57,511 nt of DNA from Patescibacteria group bacterium (GTDB lineage: Bacteria; Patescibacteriota; Patescibacteriia; UBA9934; CAMTUG01). Shown here in pieces: positions 31,583 through 55,529 of the stretch. The first letter of the stretch is position 1; each line of letters opens with the position of its first letter. The translations under genes and the position numbers were made by a program. The notes under the pieces are model-generated. The model saw nothing but the letters and a program-made list of their open reading frames with translations, made no database searches and was not told the DNA's origin. The stretch covers positions 1 through 57,511 of the forward strand of contig JBBTQF010000021.1 in the NCBI GenBank assembly GCA_038065815.1. Direction: 5' to 3'.

Positions 31583-31606
31583 AACCAAAACCCCGCTTGC
31601 GCGGGG
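31581..31606 (-). terminator. intrinsic terminator for the minus-strand RNA
   Basis: The minus strand reads CCCCGC-GCAA-GCGGGG followed by UUUUGGUUUU. On the plus strand the hairpin has no U-tract after it. Confidence 0.7.
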
Positions 31607-31693
31607 AGTTGGCAGTCTCGATTCGGTACGAGTGACCTGGATTGCTACCTAAATCAAGAGTATCCTAATTTAGGATTGTCGTCAAACTGTTTG

Positions 31694-31764
31694 TGGTGGA
31701 GGCGCGGGGATTTGAACCCCGGAAACCATGGGTAGCAATCCAGGTTTCGTATCAAACCGCCCCC
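31694..31764 (-). ncRNA. tRNA-like element (Ala-type acceptor, T-arm, encoded CCA, no D-arm)
   Basis: The minus strand reads GGGGGCG GUUUGAUAC GAAACC-UGG-AUUGCUAC-CCA-U-GGUUUC CGGGG-UUCAAAU-CCCCG CGCCUCC A CCA. It has a 7-bp acceptor stem with G3.U70, a perfect T-arm with a consensus-like loop, and a long arm whose loop carries UGC. It is only 71 nt and lacks a D stem-loop. Confidence 0.5.
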
Positions 31765-31776
31765 ACCACAGTAAAA

Positions 31777-31782
31777 ATTATA
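31777..31782 (-). promoter_or_regulatory. -10 box (TATAAT) for the minus-strand tRNA-like transcript
   Basis: The minus strand reads TTGGGA, 18 nt, TATAAT, 6 nt, then UGUGGU-GGGGGCG. This puts the predicted start at about 31770. Confidence 0.45.
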
Positions 31783-31789
31783 TTAAAAT

Positions 31790-33529
31790 ATGGCTTCCAC
31801 TCCCAACTACGATGCTAAAGTAAAAGCGATCCTCGATGCCACAACGCTTGGTGAGCGTGTTTGTGCGATCACAGGAGAGAAGTGGACGCAGGACTCCAAG
31901 GAGCTGGAGATTTACCGTCGCTTCAATGTACCGCCACTGAAGATTTGCACCAACGCTTTATGGAAGTGGATGGCATTTTATGATGCCGGATTTCAATTTT
32001 GGTGGAATAAGCACGCCGAGACGGGGAAGCCGGTGCTCAGTTTTCATCATCCCGCTTCCGGGATCCGCGTTCTGCCCGACGTCGAATGGCATGCTAAAGA
32101 TTTTTCCACCATCACTGCCGATGTCGATCCGACCAAATCGTTTTTCGATCAGCTTCGCGCTCTCGAACTCTGTGTTCCTTTTATGGCGACGTTTGATCGC
32201 CAGCCACCGGAGAACTCGATCACTCTTTTCTCCTTTGGCGATCGCAATAGCTACTTCACTTTCGCATGTCAGTCCGAGCGCTGTTTCTTTTCTGCTGGCG
32301 CCTTTCAAGCTGAAGGTTCGTCGCTCTTGTGGCTCACCAATCAAATCACCGACAGTCATTGGATTTTGAAATCCGACCGTCTGTTTCGCTGTCGCTATGT
32401 TCGTGAGTCGTTGGATTGTATCGACAGTGCCTTTTTGTTTGACTGCCGTAATTGCCAAAATTGTTTTGGGGTCGTCAACAAACGCAATCGTCAATACCTG
32501 TTCATGAATGAGCAGTTGAGCAGGGCCGAGTACGAAGCCCGAATGTTGACGATTGATCTTGGCAAGCGATCGGAAGTGGAAAAATACAGCCAGCAATTCG
32601 ATGCACTGCTCGCCAAGGAAGGCGTTTGGCCGGAAAACTTCAACGTCAACACCCAAGAATCCGTTGGTGAATATTTGGTTAACGCTGTGCGCTCACAGCA
32701 ATGCTTTGCCGCCGCAGACGCTCCGACCGATCAGTATCGCAGTGCGTGGTCTTATGGACTCAATCAACACAACGCTAACATGTGGGGATCGATCGACAGC
32801 AGTGATTGCTATATGTCCGTGGCTTGTCCAAACTCGAGCAAAAGTAATTTTTCTTACCGCTCGTTCCGTTTGGATAACTGCGAGTTCTGCGTCATGTCGT
32901 CGGATCTACGCGATTGTTTTGGGTGTGTAGGTCTGAAGAAAAAACGGTTTTGTATTTTCAACAAACAGTACACGGAGGAGGAATATTGGAGAATCGTCGA
33001 TGAAATCAAATCGGCGATGTTGGAGAGGGGAGAATATGGAACGTATTTGCCAACTGCGTTGTCGACGACTTTCGTGCCAGAGTCTGGCGCGGTGGTCTAT
33101 ACCGGCGCTTCACCCGAGGAGCTGGCCATGTTTGGAGGGAATTTGTTTGGCGCCGAAGACGATGGAGCCACCGGAGCCGATCGCATTGATCCAAGCAAGG
33201 CTCGCAAGCGCGAGGACATTCCGGACGCGATTGATGATTTAACGGACGAATGGGTCGGCGTACCCATTTACGACGAAGTTTCCAAACGCACTTTCACCTT
33301 TTTGCGTCCAGAAGTGGAGCATTACCGCCGCCTGCGTGTTGCCCCGCCAAACATCCATTTTATTCGCCGTCTGCATGAAGTTTCTCACGCCGGCCAGGTG
33401 GCGGCCTTCGAACCTGCCAGCTGTACCAAATGCCAACAAGCGGTCACCATCGCCAAAAATATTCGCTACCCCCACCGCCGCATTTATTGCAGAGCCTGTT
33501 ATACGGCGTTTGTGGAAAAGAATGGATGA
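31790..33529 (+). CDS. Cys-rich repeat protein, tandem paralog 2 of 5
   Basis: MASTPNYDAKVKAILDA..., FLFDCRNCQNCFGVVNKRNRQYLFMNEQL, CFGCVGLKKKRFCIFNKQYTEEEYW, and CTKC-x18-CRACYTAFVEKNG. Confidence 0.8.
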   Translation: MASTPNYDAKVKAILDATTLGERVCAITGEKWTQDSKELEIYRRFNVPPLKICTNALWKWMAFYDAGFQFWWNKHAETGKPVLSFHHPASGIRVLPDVEWHAKDFSTITADVDPTKSFFDQLRALELCVPFMATFDRQPPENSITLFSFGDRNSYFTFACQSERCFFSAGAFQAEGSSLLWLTNQITDSHWILKSDRLFRCRYVRESLDCIDSAFLFDCRNCQNCFGVVNKRNRQYLFMNEQLSRAEYEARMLTIDLGKRSEVEKYSQQFDALLAKEGVWPENFNVNTQESVGEYLVNAVRSQQCFAAADAPTDQYRSAWSYGLNQHNANMWGSIDSSDCYMSVACPNSSKSNFSYRSFRLDNCEFCVMSSDLRDCFGCVGLKKKRFCIFNKQYTEEEYWRIVDEIKSAMLERGEYGTYLPTALSTTFVPESGAVVYTGASPEELAMFGGNLFGAEDDGATGADRIDPSKARKREDIPDAIDDLTDEWVGVPIYDEVSKRTFTFLRPEVEHYRRLRVAPPNIHFIRRLHEVSHAGQVAAFEPASCTKCQQAVTIAKNIRYPHRRIYCRACYTAFVEKNG

Positions 33530-50204: not shown

Positions 50205-51581
50205 GTGATTCAGCTCTATAACACCCTTTCCCGTCAAATTGAGTCCTTAAGGCCAATAAATCCGCCAAAAATTGGCCTTTATTCTTGTGGACCGACGGTT
50301 TATAGTTTTGCCCATATTGGTAACTTGCGTGCTTACGTTATTTGGGACACATTGCGTCGCACTCTTACGCTCAACGATTTACAAGTTCAGCACGTCATGA
50401 ACATTACGGATGTCGGACATTTAACTGATGATGCTGACTCTGGCGAGGATAAAATGATCATTGCTATGCGTCGTGAAGGGAAGAGTGCGTTCGATATTGC
50501 CGAGTTTTATACCAAAGCTTTTTTGAGCGACATGAGACGACTCAATGTTCTTGAGCCACATGCCATGCCACGTGCAACTGCTCATGTCGCGGAACAGATT
50601 GAGATGATCAAGTTACTTGAAACACGCGGGTTCACCTACAGGACCACGGATGGCATCTATTTTGATACTTCAAAACTCGCGGACTACGGAAAGCTTTCGG
50701 GTCAAAAATTAGAGGAAAAAATGGCTGGCGTTCGCGTTGAGATGGGCGAGAAAAAGAGCCCGACGGACTTTGCTTTGTGGAAGTTTTCGCCTGCTAACGT
50801 CACGCGTGAAATGGAATGGGATTCTACTTGGGGTGTTGGTTTTCCAGGTTGGCACATTGAATGTTCGGCCATGAGCAGAAAATATCTTGGTGTGCCATTT
50901 GATATCCACACAGGTGGCGTAGATCATATTGCTGTCCATCATGAAAATGAGCTTGCGCAAACGGAAGGTGCCTTTGGAAAGTTACAGGCGAATATCTGGA
51001 TGCATAATGAGTTTTTGACTGTTGATGCAGGAAAAATGGGCAAGTCGCTGGGTAATATGTATAACATGCAGGATGTGCTGGATCGTCGCTTCGAGCCGCT
51101 CGCGTTTCGTTACTTGTGTCTTGGCACACACTATCGTACAAAACTCAACTTCACATGGGAGGCGTTGAAAGGCGCGCAAAATGCATTGCAAAAATTGTAC
51201 GAGCGCGTTCGAGAGCTTGAGGCGCCAGCAATTGGCTGTGCAGATTACGAGCGTGACTTTCTTTCAGCGATGAACAACGATCTAAACACGCCACAAGCGC
51301 TTGCAGTTATGTGGAGGCTTTTTGATGATGTTGAGCTACCAAGCGCTGGCAAGGCTCAATCGCTTTTGTATTTTGATCAAGTTTTAGGACTTGGACTTGA
51401 GAATTACATAGGGAAAGCTCTTGAGATTCCAGCCGATGTGCAATCTCTTGTGGATGATCGTCAACGGGCTCGAGTCGAAAAGGATTGGGCTCGCTCTGAC
51501 GAGCTTCGAGCTCAAATCCAAGCTCTCGGTTACGAAATTGATGACCGAGCTGTTGGAACACGATTGCGAAAAGTGGCTTAA
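50205..51581 (+). CDS. cysS: cysteine--tRNA ligase
   Basis: CGPTVYSFAHIGNLR (HIGH motif), GWHIECSAM, and KMGKSLGN (KMSKS motif). GTG start. Confidence 0.9.
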   Translation: MIQLYNTLSRQIESLRPINPPKIGLYSCGPTVYSFAHIGNLRAYVIWDTLRRTLTLNDLQVQHVMNITDVGHLTDDADSGEDKMIIAMRREGKSAFDIAEFYTKAFLSDMRRLNVLEPHAMPRATAHVAEQIEMIKLLETRGFTYRTTDGIYFDTSKLADYGKLSGQKLEEKMAGVRVEMGEKKSPTDFALWKFSPANVTREMEWDSTWGVGFPGWHIECSAMSRKYLGVPFDIHTGGVDHIAVHHENELAQTEGAFGKLQANIWMHNEFLTVDAGKMGKSLGNMYNMQDVLDRRFEPLAFRYLCLGTHYRTKLNFTWEALKGAQNALQKLYERVRELEAPAIGCADYERDFLSAMNNDLNTPQALAVMWRLFDDVELPSAGKAQSLLYFDQVLGLGLENYIGKALEIPADVQSLVDDRQRARVEKDWARSDELRAQIQALGYEIDDRAVGTRLRKVA

Positions 51582-51607
51582 TAGAGCCAAATTATCACAA
51601 CGCCCTA

Positions 51608-51636
51608 TTGACAAGATGGGGCTTTTGTGATATAAA
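51608..51636 (+). promoter_or_regulatory. near-consensus sigma70 promoter with extended -10
   Basis: TTGACA (51608-51613), a 17-nt spacer ending in TGA, then TATAAA (51631-51636). Confidence 0.65.
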
Positions 51637-51642
51637 TATACG

Positions 51643-51963
51643 TCGCGATGGGAGCTCGATCGCGCTGGTAGTGTGGATTGTTAACCACACGCCTTGGTAG
51701 GAGCTTAAATTAGTTAGTGACTTTTAGAGTCCGCAGAGAAACAGCAGAGCGGACCAAAGTGTGTGGTGTGGATCACCAAGACATCGCGTCTAAACGATCC
51801 TGGCTGGAGACAGAGCCAGTAGTGAACCATTGTGGTATGGTTACTACGAATCTGAAGGGGGGGAAGGGTGTCCGCACTCTCACTCTTCGTCCCCGACCTA
51901 ATCTTGCTGACCCCGTCACGCCCTTGTCTTAACAAGGAAGCGTGACGGGGTCTTACTTATTTT
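51643..51963 (+). ncRNA. unclassified ~320-nt structured RNA or long regulatory leader
   Basis: It lies between the promoter above and a 13+5-bp terminator hairpin (GACCCCGTCACGC..CCTTG/CAAGG..GCGTGACGGGGTC, 51909-51952) followed by TTACTTATTTT. Internal hairpins are GTGTGG/CCACAC, TCCGC/GCGGA, CTGGCT/AGCCAG and GTAGTGAACCAT/ATGGTTACTAC. The only ORFs here lack ATG/SD and are open on both strands. Confidence 0.55.
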
Positions 51964-51979
51964 GCTATACTATAAGCCT

Positions 51980-52468
51980 ATGCCTGATAAGAAAATAAAT
52001 CCTGCTGAACAACCTCTAGTAGATGCGCCTGATGGTATAATGTCGAGGGCGGAAACGGTTGAGTCAGCGCAACCGTTGTCACCAGAAGTTTCTCGTAGGC
52101 ACGAGGACATTTCCGTGCAAGTCACCACTCCACAGACGATAGACCCTCGGCATCAAATACCGATGACGTCTACTGCTAGCGACCCTCTTACAGCCGAAAT
52201 TGAGCAGGTTCTCTCGCAAGATCTTGACGAGCTATATAATGAGCTCGCTCCTGACAAGAAAGAACGGTTTAAGGTAGAAGGGGAGAAAGTCGCCAGTTTG
52301 ATTCGACAGATGATGAAAAAAGGGAAGTTACACACACGAAAAGTACTTGTACTGATTCGACGCTGGTTAGGACTCATCCCCGGAGTAAATCGTTTTTTTC
52401 TTGAGCAGGAATCCAAAATCAAAACCGACCGTATCTTGATGATCGAAGAGGAAGAAAAACAAAAATAA
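51980..52468 (+). CDS. hypothetical protein upstream of the fused ATPase
   Basis: ATG 51980 (the listed start is TTG 51962). It has a disordered N-terminus and a C-terminal amphipathic/hydrophobic segment LIRRWLGLIPGVNRFFLEQE. The stop is 2 nt before the next ATG. Confidence 0.5.
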   Translation: MPDKKINPAEQPLVDAPDGIMSRAETVESAQPLSPEVSRRHEDISVQVTTPQTIDPRHQIPMTSTASDPLTAEIEQVLSQDLDELYNELAPDKKERFKVEGEKVASLIRQMMKKGKLHTRKVLVLIRRWLGLIPGVNRFFLEQESKIKTDRILMIEEEEKQK

Positions 52469-52470
52469 TT

Positions 52471-54942
52471 ATGAACGAGACACTCGTGTTTTTTTTGGCA
52501 TCATGGCCTATTGTCCTCGGTTTAGGTATTTTTGCGTTTCGCTGGTACGCCCACCGTTTTTTGTACCGACATGGAAAGACGTTCAAAATGGTTACGCTCC
52601 TTGTCACATTGCCGAAGTTTCGCAGGGAGGATGAAACGAAAGAGGAGTTGACGACACAACGCGTTCAAGAGGATATTGGTGTTGATGAAACTTTTTTTTC
52701 CGCAATTGCCGGCTTGCATCCGCAGAGTGGCGTTACAGCATGGCTACTTGGACGCAATGATCACTTTGCTTTTGAGATTGTTTCTCACGAGAAGCTTATA
52801 AAATTTTACGTAACTATTCCGCGCCGTTATCAGGAGTTTATTTCCCAGCAAATGACAGCACAACATCCGGATGCGTTTATCGAGGAAGTTGAAGATTACA
52901 ATATTTTTTCACCAACCGGAGTTATTCTCGGTGGCTATTTACAGCAGAAACGTCAAGCATTTTTTCCGTTTAGAACATTTCGTAAGTTGGAAGCGGATCC
53001 TCTTAACGGACTCACTAATGCACTCTCAAAAATTCCATCGGAGAGTGGAGTTGCAATTCAGTACATTGTTCGTCCAGCGCACAGGAGTTGGCGCAAGGTA
53101 GGTGCTATCGTTGGAAGGAATATGCTTAAGGGGATGACGCTTGATGAAGCGATTCGTGGAAAGAAAAGAGGAGAGGGTTGGATGAAGGCATTTCAGAGTA
53201 AAAATAGTGAAACGATGAAACAGGAGAAGAGTGGCTCGTATTACATGACTCAAACGGAACAGGATATGACCAAGGGAATTGAGGAAAAAATTTCAAAAGG
53301 CGGGCTGGAAGTGAATATCAGGCTCGCAGTTTCGGCGGCTGGGGTCGAGGCGTCGTATGAGCTCTTAAAAGACGCGATGGCTGCGTTTTCTCAATTTAAC
53401 ATTTACGAATATGGGAACGCCCTTGAGAAGTTTATCCCACTGCGTAAACGACATTTGATCAGAAAGTTTATTTATCGCGGTTTTGATGAGACGCGCCGTG
53501 TGATTTTGAACGTAGAGGAGATGGCAAGTCTTTGGCATCTTCCGCTTAAGACGACCGAGACCCCGAATATTTTGTGGCTTAACGCGCGCACCGCCCCAGT
53601 GCCGACGAACATACCGCAAGAAGGGCTTATGCTCGGCTACAATATCTATCGTGGCCGTAAAACTGACATCCATATCAAGCGTAACGATCGTCAGCGTCAT
53701 ATGTATCTCGTTGGTAAATCTGGATCTGGAAAAACCGTCTTTATTCAGATGATGGCACTGCAGGACATAAAAAATGGGGAGGGGGTTTGTGTACTCGATC
53801 CGCACGGAGACATGATTGAATGGATTCTTGGCAACATTCCAAAAAATCGGATTGATGATGTTATCGTCTTTGATCCGTCTGATCTTGAGCGACCAGTCGG
53901 TCTCAACATGCTCGAGGTAAAGGATGAGACAATGAAGGACATGGCAGTGCAGGAGATGATTGCTATTTTCTACAAACTTTTTCCACCAGAGATGATTGGG
54001 CCAATGTTTGAACACTACATGCGAAATGTGATGCTTACGTTGATGGCCGATCCTGTGACGCAGGGTACGATCACGGAAATTCCGCGCATGTTTAGTGATT
54101 CCGAGTATCAAAAACAGTGGGTATCAAAGGTGAATGATCCAGTCGTTCGATCGTTTTGGGAAAATGAAATGGCAAAAACGAGTGATTTCCATAAGTCCGA
54201 GATGCTTGGTTATTTGATCTCGAAAGTTGGACGGTTTGTTGAAAACTCAATGATGCGTAATATTATTGGACAACAGCAATCTGGATTTGATGTGCGTGAG
54301 GTCATGGATAAGGGAAAGATTTTGCTGGTCAATCTAGCAAAGGGTCGCACAGGCGAGGTTAACGCGTCTCTACTTGGAATGATTATTGTCAGCAAATTAC
54401 AGATGGCGGCGCTTGCTCGAGCGGATATGCCAGAGGAATCTCGTAAGGATTTTTATCTGTACATTGATGAGTTTCAAAATTTCATCACGGACTCGATTTC
54501 GACGATTCTCTCGGAGGCGCGCAAGTATCGCCTCAACTTAATCGTCGGCCATCAGTACATGGGACAGCTTGTCAAAGATAATAAGACGGAAATACGCGAT
54601 GCGGTTTTGGGAAACGTCGGGTCAACGTTCGTGTCGCGTATTGGGCCTGAAGACGCGGAGACGCTTGAGAAGCTTTATACGCCGACGTTTAGTGGCTATG
54701 ATCTCATCAACTCGGATCAGTTTACTTGGTATGTGAAACTCATCATTGACAACACTCAAGTTAAACCGTTCACGATGAAGACATACGCTCCGGTTAAGTC
54801 TGATATAAAGCTCGCCTCTGCGATCAAGCAGTTGTCGAGGTTGAAATATGGACGAGATCGCGCGATCGTTGAGGCTGAAATTTTGGAGCGTTCGCGTATT
54901 CAAACATTGACGGTGCCCGCTCCTGTTTCAAAGCCACTTTAG
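52471..54942 (+). CDS. fused membrane N-domain plus VirD4/TraD-like P-loop ATPase
   Basis: N-terminal TM segment. Residues ~1-380 are homologous to the 23209..24798 protein. The C-terminal half has LVGKSGSGKT, DPHGD, YLYIDEFQNF and RKYRLNLIVGHQY, collinear with the 24826 and 26691 ATPases. Confidence 0.75.
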   Translation: MNETLVFFLASWPIVLGLGIFAFRWYAHRFLYRHGKTFKMVTLLVTLPKFRREDETKEELTTQRVQEDIGVDETFFSAIAGLHPQSGVTAWLLGRNDHFAFEIVSHEKLIKFYVTIPRRYQEFISQQMTAQHPDAFIEEVEDYNIFSPTGVILGGYLQQKRQAFFPFRTFRKLEADPLNGLTNALSKIPSESGVAIQYIVRPAHRSWRKVGAIVGRNMLKGMTLDEAIRGKKRGEGWMKAFQSKNSETMKQEKSGSYYMTQTEQDMTKGIEEKISKGGLEVNIRLAVSAAGVEASYELLKDAMAAFSQFNIYEYGNALEKFIPLRKRHLIRKFIYRGFDETRRVILNVEEMASLWHLPLKTTETPNILWLNARTAPVPTNIPQEGLMLGYNIYRGRKTDIHIKRNDRQRHMYLVGKSGSGKTVFIQMMALQDIKNGEGVCVLDPHGDMIEWILGNIPKNRIDDVIVFDPSDLERPVGLNMLEVKDETMKDMAVQEMIAIFYKLFPPEMIGPMFEHYMRNVMLTLMADPVTQGTITEIPRMFSDSEYQKQWVSKVNDPVVRSFWENEMAKTSDFHKSEMLGYLISKVGRFVENSMMRNIIGQQQSGFDVREVMDKGKILLVNLAKGRTGEVNASLLGMIIVSKLQMAALARADMPEESRKDFYLYIDEFQNFITDSISTILSEARKYRLNLIVGHQYMGQLVKDNKTEIRDAVLGNVGSTFVSRIGPEDAETLEKLYTPTFSGYDLINSDQFTWYVKLIIDNTQVKPFTMKTYAPVKSDIKLASAIKQLSRLKYGRDRAIVEAEILERSRIQTLTVPAPVSKPL

Positions 54943-54944
54943 TT

Positions 54945-55529
54945 ATGTCCGATCATTTCTATCCTGAACCTGAACTCGACCAGCCGGATCGAAGAGCTGA
55001 TCTTGTGCTTCGTATTTTGCGCCAGACGCAGGATAGTTTAACGCACGCGATTCAGTTACTTGAGCAGGGCGGGAGTGGTGTTGCAGATGATGTGCTGGAA
55101 AACCTGACGCTCGAAAAACAACGGCTCGACACGGAAGTTGCCGAGTCATCAACGCAACGTGTGCTGGAGGGAGTTTTTGACGGCCAGCAAATGGTGGCAA
55201 GTGACGGAGCTGTTTATCAAGTGCCGTCGAATTACGCGTCAAAGTCGAAACTTGTTGAAGGGGATTTGCTCAAGCTCACTATTCGACGTGATGGTGGATT
55301 TTTGTTCAAACAAACGGGACCGATTGAGCGTAAACGCATCGTCGGGACGTTGGCGTTGGAAAAGGAAAGCGGTGAATATGTTGTTGTGGGCCAGCAGTCC
55401 GATCGTTGGAGAGTCCTGCGAGCGAGTGTCACGTACTTCAAAGGTGAGCCCGGTGATGAGGCTGTTATCATGGTTCCTAAAACAACGCCAAGCTCTTGGG
55501 CGGCCGTAGAGAATATCCTGAAGGGGTAA
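54945..55529 (+). CDS. hypothetical protein (conserved-looking, unknown function)
   Basis: Starts 2 nt after the ATPase stop. ..VLEGVFDGQQMVASDGAVYQVPSNYASKSKLVEGDLLKL.. and ..VTYFKGEPGDEAVIMVPK..WAAVENI.. read like an S1/OB- or KOW-like small-barrel protein, but this is a guess. Confidence 0.5.
   Translation: MSDHFYPEPELDQPDRRADLVLRILRQTQDSLTHAIQLLEQGGSGVADDVLENLTLEKQRLDTEVAESSTQRVLEGVFDGQQMVASDGAVYQVPSNYASKSKLVEGDLLKLTIRRDGGFLFKQTGPIERKRIVGTLALEKESGEYVVVGQQSDRWRVLRASVTYFKGEPGDEAVIMVPKTTPSSWAAVENILKG

Follow-up and report, generated by a model that had tools for sequence, protein, structure and literature searches.

Between cysS and a conserved operon for a VirD4/TrwB-like ATPase the genome of a Patescibacteria group bacterium carries a stand-alone transcription unit which is confined to one species. 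The unit resides in a slot of variable content. It most likely specifies a non-coding RNA, an orphan; we hold this view tentatively and rate it slightly below an even chance. The unit has a promoter-like site of its own and a terminator of its own, and the operon behind it has a separate promoter. The original prediction had left a choice between a free-standing RNA and a long attenuator or riboswitch-type leader of the operon. The first proposal is the one which finds support; the layout of the locus speaks against the leader.

Genomic setting and features

The window, i.e., the whole stretch of 57,511 nucleotides which was analysed, is contig C21 of a 775-kb genome (G000; 54 contigs, 98.9% complete). 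According to CysS the nearest named species representatives are Candidatus Uhrbacteria MAGs with 60-64% identity. The sequencing runs which contain the stretch of the element are groundwater and aquifer metagenomes. Under crude ORF calling the genome has 65 gaps of at least 300 nt, so a gap of this size is not rare. The features discussed are as follows.

50205-51581, plus strand: cysS, cysteinyl-tRNA synthetase (Pfam tRNA-synt_1e, 1.7e-92), left border of the variable slot
51602-51622, plus strand: hairpin which contains the -35 hexamer, then a T-run; terminator-like site, -13.1 kcal/mol
51608-51636, plus strand: promoter-like site P1, TTGACA at 51608-51613, 17-nt spacer, TG at 51628-29, TATAAA at 51631-36
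51640-51905, plus strand: body of the predicted transcript with an inferred start, used for folds, shuffles and comparison with genomic windows
51642-51665; 51684-51698/51753-51767; 51675-82/51793-800; 51801-51818; 51819-51847; 51857-51894, plus strand: helices of the predicted MFE fold of the body
51642-51691, plus strand: 5' module, a transcript-start hairpin and a GUGUG/CACAC hairpin, which resembles the 5' UTR at C11:23203-23350 of the same genome
51717-51932, plus strand: 71-codon GTG ORF, stop within the terminator loop; coding status leans to spurious
51909-51963, plus strand: predicted intrinsic terminator, interrupted stem and U-rich tail, -35.2 kcal/mol, seen in every fold
51963-51982, plus strand: predicted promoter P2 of the operon, extended -10 box TGCTATACT at 51963-51971, 8 nt, ATG at 51980; the promoter scan lists the site with its TG
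51980-55529, plus strand: conserved operon, right border of the slot, assigned by Pfam and by synteny with cysS across the order; outside of the element

The operon consists of the genes for a 162-aa protein (51980-52468), the 823-aa VirD4/TrwB-like ATPase (52471-54942) and a 194-aa protein; dnaX follows. A paralogous ATPase module at 23.2 kb had been said to have no such element, and indeed the gap upstream of it measures just 42 nt.

Promoter and terminator

P1 was originally described as one of the best sigma70-like promoters of the window. TTGACA, the 17-nt spacer, the TG and TATAAA are all present as described; the -10 box, however, is without the usual final T. Because the sixth base of the -10 box is an A, P1 is missing from the listing of the promoter scan. 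The pattern TTGACA-N14-15-TGnTAnnnX is found at 29 sites in the 775 kb of the genome. X is T in 26 of them, A in three, P1 included, and C or G in none. This tally places P1 in the strong-promoter class of this genome, with a rarer variant of the -10 box.

Inspection of the 29 sites by eye discloses a recurrent architecture. TTGACA often lies within a short hairpin which is followed by a T-run and then by TGnTAnnnT. At several sites a hairpin starting with CGTCG comes next, at the transcript start. Examples are C26:15382, C26:9785, C11:23203, C31:9888 (contig:position) and 51608 in the window. The hairpin and T-run at such promoters may double as terminator of the upstream gene. The hairpin at 51602-51622 looks like the terminator of cysS and, at the same time, like part of this terminator-promoter composite.

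At its other end the unit closes with a terminator which had been noted as an interrupted stem ahead of the ATPase operon. The hairpin comprises 19 bp (51909-51952), a U-rich tail follows, and the next ATG is at 51980. Judged by their sequences both appear to be real, the promoter-like site (51608-51636) as well as the strong terminator (51909-51963). Thus the unit shows, as sequence predictions, both marks of a stand-alone sRNA gene: a promoter and an intrinsic terminator of its own.

From these elements the following picture can be drawn. P1, a sigma-70-type promoter like those of the strongest units of this genome, would start an RNA near 51642. The RNA would open with a 5' hairpin protecting it from decay which depends on the 5' end; 5' stem-loops are known to protect RNAs in this manner. 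It would continue for about 315 nt through several hairpins and stop at the intrinsic terminator of -35 kcal/mol. The product would be non-coding and would play no role in attenuating the ATPase operon, which would start at its own extended -10 box. In addition, the terminator would shield the downstream leaderless start from transcription arriving from upstream; a read-through transcript would bury the AUG required at the 5' end.

The downstream operon

The promoter of the operon speaks against a leader. The small-protein gene which opens the operon has a TGnTAnnnT box 3-12 nt before its in-frame ATG, and this holds for 24 of 24 loci in the order, the present one among them. Altogether 27 loci were examined, 20 from genomes and seven from metagenome contigs; three (L019, L022, L028) were dropped because they had no small-protein match or no complete locus. 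With a -10 box that close to the start codon the mRNA would be leaderless. The sequences therefore indicate a leaderless mRNA for the ATPase operon throughout the order, transcribed from an extended -10 promoter. No ribosome-binding site precedes the first ATG of the operon.

In the window the -10 box of the operon is located 3' of the terminator of the element. Leaderless translation requires an AUG at the 5' end of the RNA. Consequently, read-through from P1 would not serve the first gene. Further, in 16 of the 24 loci the gap between cysS and the ATG of the small-protein gene is just 1-105 nt, which leaves no room for a leader. A leader would be expected to share one transcript and one promoter with its operon, and here P2 is predicted between terminator and ATG; it would also be expected to carry a sensor domain conserved across orthologous operons, and such a domain was not found. 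The Rfam search returned no cis-regulatory family. All this speaks against the proposed attenuator or riboswitch leader of 51980-55529 and in favor of a free-standing unit.

Structure of the body

Several local hairpins had been claimed, and the computed folds do predict several. How much structure the element has beyond chance is another matter. The full 326 nt have a shuffle z of -5.45 (-4.76 for the opposite strand), a value which is largely due to the inclusion of the terminator. The 266-nt body without the terminator has a z of -2.04, and 5 of 200 shuffles fold equally well. Equal folding is reached by 6.1% of 1497 sampled genomic windows of 266 nt, or 4.1% after GC adjustment. By these models the body would be moderately structured at best, only mildly more so than chance.

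The original prediction further pointed to complementary words, among them two GUCCGC segments competing for one partner, as a clue to an alternative-pairing switch. All the words exist, yet some are displaced by 1-2 nt from where they had been placed; the positions are 51644-50 for CGCGATG, 51782-88 for CATCGCG, 51870-75 for the second GTCCGC and 51876-80 for ACTCT. Exact 7-mer repeats in the body occur at chance level, three direct against 2.0 expected and two inverted against 1.9; hence the competing GUCCGC segments carry little weight, and the switch loses its clue. 6-mers are enriched, with 19 direct repeats against 7.8 expected (p 0.006) and 15 inverted ones against 8.0 (p 0.048). The best long-range helix, 51684-98/51753-67, has 15 nt with 87% complementarity.

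The 5' module has one counterpart. A comparison with the 5' UTR on contig C11 yields 22 identical positions out of 28 (shuffle p 0.0012, uncorrected for 28 comparisons). The genome contains just these two sites. C11:23203-23350 consists of a promoter and a 5' UTR ahead of a protein-coding gene which is truncated by the contig end and has a clear ribosome-binding site.

A protein-sponge RNA of the CsrB/RsmY type was considered and rejected. GGA motifs are not enriched in the element (8 against 4.7 expected), and ANGGA occurs once against 1.3 expected.

The 71-codon open reading frame

The statement that the unit has no credible ORF was too strong. An ORF of 71 codons which starts with GTG covers two thirds of it. 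An ORF of at least this length occurs in 6.8% of 5000 shuffles (p 0.068), and the GTG is the second codon of the open frame. AGGAG is located 13 nt ahead of the GTG; this is uninformative because the genome barely uses such motifs. With start codons crudely taken as the first in frame, AGGAG or GGAGG within 22 nt of the start is seen in just 29 of 572 long ORFs, close to the approximately 3% which chance would give, and Shine-Dalgarno motifs in this genome show no preferred spacing.

The predicted 71-aa product has no Pfam match. In a search of 1.84 billion representatives only the sequence itself and artefacts from repeat proteins were returned. The latter are TPR-like proteins and a protein of 827 aa with 10 stretches; they are considered artefacts because about 7-10 bits per repeat are summed over 4-10 near-identical copies. 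Among 5.8 billion clusters the identical 71-aa sequence stands alone, recorded as a predicted protein on three contigs, with no variant cluster. Measured against real 71-codon pieces the frame has a low codon score (-0.041, 3rd percentile), one which 17% of spurious ORFs attain as well. AlphaFold2 models the product with a mean pLDDT of 52.8 and a pTM of 0.29; the Atlas model has a pLDDT of 0.28. A small-protein gene would show conservation of its ORF in relatives, codon usage of the typical kind or a fold predicted with confidence; none of these was found. The 71-codon ORF thus leans toward non-coding.

Conservation and the variable slot

The original prediction had named lack of conservation as one ground for refuting it, and conservation is indeed lacking in everything searched. 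In its own genome BLAST of the element finds only the element itself, and in 40 relatives it finds no match. A covariance model, R1, finds none in 150 other genomes of the order at E ≤1; R1 (266 positions, 72 pairs) derives from a single sequence with its centroid fold and is therefore a weak model of limited reach, and the run over 150 genomes used the stricter filters which apply above 40 genomes. With filters off R1 had no match in 11 loci (best E 1.4, on the wrong strand). Phage and plasmid collections contain nothing similar. DNA runs of three other studies are identical to the element over the parts covered.

In the closest relative found (L054; CysS 80% and ATPase 88% identical) the gap is 38 nt and the element is absent. 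In the closest GTDB relative by CysS (G004, 72%) the assembly is interrupted precisely at this point, with cysS and the small-protein gene on separate contigs (C146 and C51).

The synteny of cysS, small protein and ATPase is conserved across the order. The space between cysS and the operon is not: in 8 of the 24 loci gaps of 367-1056 nt have unrelated contents. L027 has a tRNA, L024 and L029 have minus-strand ORFs, L032 has a 39-codon ORF with a hydrophobic stretch, L053 an ORF which looks Nudix-like by eye, and L033 a gap of 436 nt. The gap between cysS and operon is a variable insertion slot. The element has no similarity to the slot contents of other genomes in tblastx or blastn; it was therefore rejected as a relic of the genes which occupy the slot elsewhere.

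In one other genome (G003; L034 2913-3653, contig C28) the space between cysS and the leaderless operon contains a unit of about 670 nt which runs from a promoter to a terminator. It is GC-rich, strongly structured (z -5.06, 20 shuffles) and single-copy. It has no match in Rfam, and BLAST against 40 relatives returned only promoter-like matches of 26-32 nt. Possibly this unit is itself a large non-coding RNA. By eye this unit resembles the element, with the same promoter layout and two 5' hairpins; homology was rejected on tests. blastn joins the two over the promoter stretch only (E 0.018), a stretch which also matches other promoters, a local alignment of the first 65-70 nt has a score of 8 which is reached by 33% of shuffles, and R1 finds no match. 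It is very unlikely that both belong to a single family of large non-coding RNAs, bound to this locus and fast-evolving. If true, such a family would be kept beside a leaderless VirD4-like ATPase operon in a CPR order with no detectable SRP pathway.

Known RNA families and the SRP pathway

The failure to match the element by eye to known RNAs was borne out by an Rfam covariance search of the window, which returned nothing at gathering score. At E ≤10 the region 51500-52050 has only five matches; all score far below threshold, and they owe their scores mostly to the terminator. RNase P RNA (RF00010, RF00011) and tmRNA (RF00023) were dismissed as identities of the element. It matches neither, and the genome has its copies elsewhere, RNase P RNA at C23:129-501 (150.8 bits) and a standard tmRNA at C8:1601-1942 (128.6 bits). 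6S RNA (RF00013) was not found in the genome at E ≤10. A 6S identity of the element is most improbable, since it has no match to the model and its predicted fold is multi-branched with just a 3-bp contact between the ends.

SRP RNA (RF00169, RF01854) likewise has no match in the genome at E ≤10. With neither SRP RNA nor 6S RNA in sight the element came to be considered as a divergent SRP RNA. This reading falls because the partner protein is missing. In 21 genomes of the order, i.e., G000 and 20 relatives, all of which have cysS, the M domain of Ffh (PF02978) is found in none; the SRP54 GTPase domain which is common to Ffh and FtsY (PF00448) is above cut-off in none, with matches at P-loop level only. 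The small SRP RNA is found in 0 of 21 genomes, the large one in 0 of 1, and TIGR00959 has no real match in G000. The controls of these searches were positive in 12-14 of 14 model genomes. An SRP RNA identity was therefore rejected. In the literature on the SRP of Saccharibacteria and Uhrbacteria we found no report of such an absence. A study of TM7x and its host mentions ftsY and an SRP protein (PMC10768705), which has no bearing on the order considered here. If real, an entire CPR order would be without the near-universal SRP system.

Elsewhere in the window, at 31585-31790 on the minus strand, we noticed a unit some 190 nt long, flanked by two genes on the plus strand. Behind a TATAAT box comes a tRNA-like module of 71 nt whose acceptor includes a G3:U70 pair and whose CCA is encoded. 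The tmRNA model gives it 39.5 bits, and neither ARAGORN nor the Rfam tRNA model calls it. The 100 nt or so 3' of the module contain a 13-nt complement to its middle arm, and a terminator comes next. A copy, 77% identical over 185 nt, is present in a genome of another family (G012). In G000 the unit coexists with the standard tmRNA.

Evidence of RNA and rival explanations

In one metatranscriptome run a contig of 216 nt, at a depth of 3, is identical to 51612-51827; such contigs show neither ends nor strand. In this run (X12) it is the sole cover of a 901-nt stretch, and the uncovered parts carry no weight. The contig starts about 30 nt upstream of the inferred transcript start and may for this reason derive from cysS read-through or from DNA in the library. 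It could represent any of the three, RNA of the unit, cysS read-through or library DNA.

The preference for a non-coding RNA is backed by the class of P1, the strong terminator, the separate promoter of the operon, the orthologous operons mostly free of inserts, the library contig, the mild excess of structure and an ORF which looks spurious. It is weakened by the lack of conservation, the modest z of the body, the final A of the -10 box, the start of the contig ahead of the inferred transcript start, an ORF over two thirds of the unit and a 5' module which recurs in the 5' UTR of a protein-coding gene. It has to be weighed against four other explanations. A small gene is possible, though doubtful. 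The unit would then produce an mRNA with a structured 5' UTR of 75 nt for an orphan basic protein of 71 aa. The parts succeed each other as in a gene, from the promoter via the 5' module and the ORF to the terminator, frames of this length are infrequent in shuffles, the GTG comes almost at the start of its frame, and the identical sequence is on record as a predicted protein. In addition, the 5' module recurs on C11 ahead of a protein-coding gene. These points are met by the missing homologues, variants and Pfam match, the low codon score and the low pLDDT values. Alternatively, the element could be a functionless insert, young or decaying, in which a promoter-like site and a terminator remain. 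The variability of the slot, the confinement to one species, the -10 box which lost its usual final T and the modest structure all fit. We consider an insert unlikely, because there is no similarity to slot contents elsewhere, to phage or plasmid DNA or to the rest of the own genome, and because a genome of 775 kb would hardly retain for long 350 nt of junk in which the terminator is still intact; also, the RNA-library contig covers part of the element.

The remaining two explanations are both most improbable. A long attenuator or riboswitch-type leader which controls the ATPase operon via termination and read-through would account for a terminator just 17 nt ahead of the ATG of the operon, for short words with two possible partners and for the enriched 6-mers; moreover, a 7-codon mini-ORF with an ATG starts 11 nt after the -10 box of P1. 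This mini-ORF has no match in the G003 unit, and an ATG in that range is expected in about one case in nine. Against a leader, a promoter of the operon's own follows the terminator, a ribosome-binding site is missing, this leaderless layout recurs in every locus compared, most loci have no room for a leader, and the 7-mer pairings do not exceed chance. A highly divergent housekeeping RNA, e.g., one akin to 6S RNA which the Rfam models missed, would fill a vacancy, as a 6S-like RNA is unaccounted for in this genome. Such an RNA should recur in relatives, yet R1 detects it in none and the closest relative is empty at the site. Further, the element is predicted to fold into several branches and its ends are not joined by a long closing stem, RNase P RNA and tmRNA are encoded elsewhere, and SRP RNA is excluded. 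The orphan non-coding RNA thus is the explanation we prefer.

If a stable RNA is made, it would join the very small number of regulatory RNA candidates described for an Uhrbacteria-like CPR bacterium. The reach of this is small because the element is confined to one species. The more useful outcomes are an operon without a leader, with a leaderless layout order-wide, the insertion slot, and an order in which no Ffh, FtsY or SRP RNA was seen in the genomes searched.

Comparison with known systems

Like an attenuator or riboswitch leader the element is a structured stretch which ends in a terminator just 5' of an operon. It differs in that the operon has its own promoter after the terminator, that a conserved aptamer is missing and that most orthologous operons are without the element. 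With 6S RNA it shares the format of a stand-alone RNA gene of the abundant type, in a genome in which no other 6S RNA was found. Unlike 6S RNA it exceeds the 187-position model RF00013 by about 130 nt, is not predicted to fold into a rod with a closing stem and is not conserved. Orphan small-protein genes (<75 aa) also have a promoter, a 5' UTR, an ORF, here of 71 codons, and a terminator, and a predicted protein is recorded for this one; its ORF departs from them by atypical codon usage, no homologue and a very low fold confidence. Compared to trans-encoded sRNA genes which are specific to a strain or species the element is, at about 315 nt, long for the class, has no known target, chaperone or homologue, and includes a 71-codon ORF. 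Yet it has in common with them the intergenic position, an own sigma-70-type promoter, a U-tailed terminator, hairpins and the lack of a conserved ORF.
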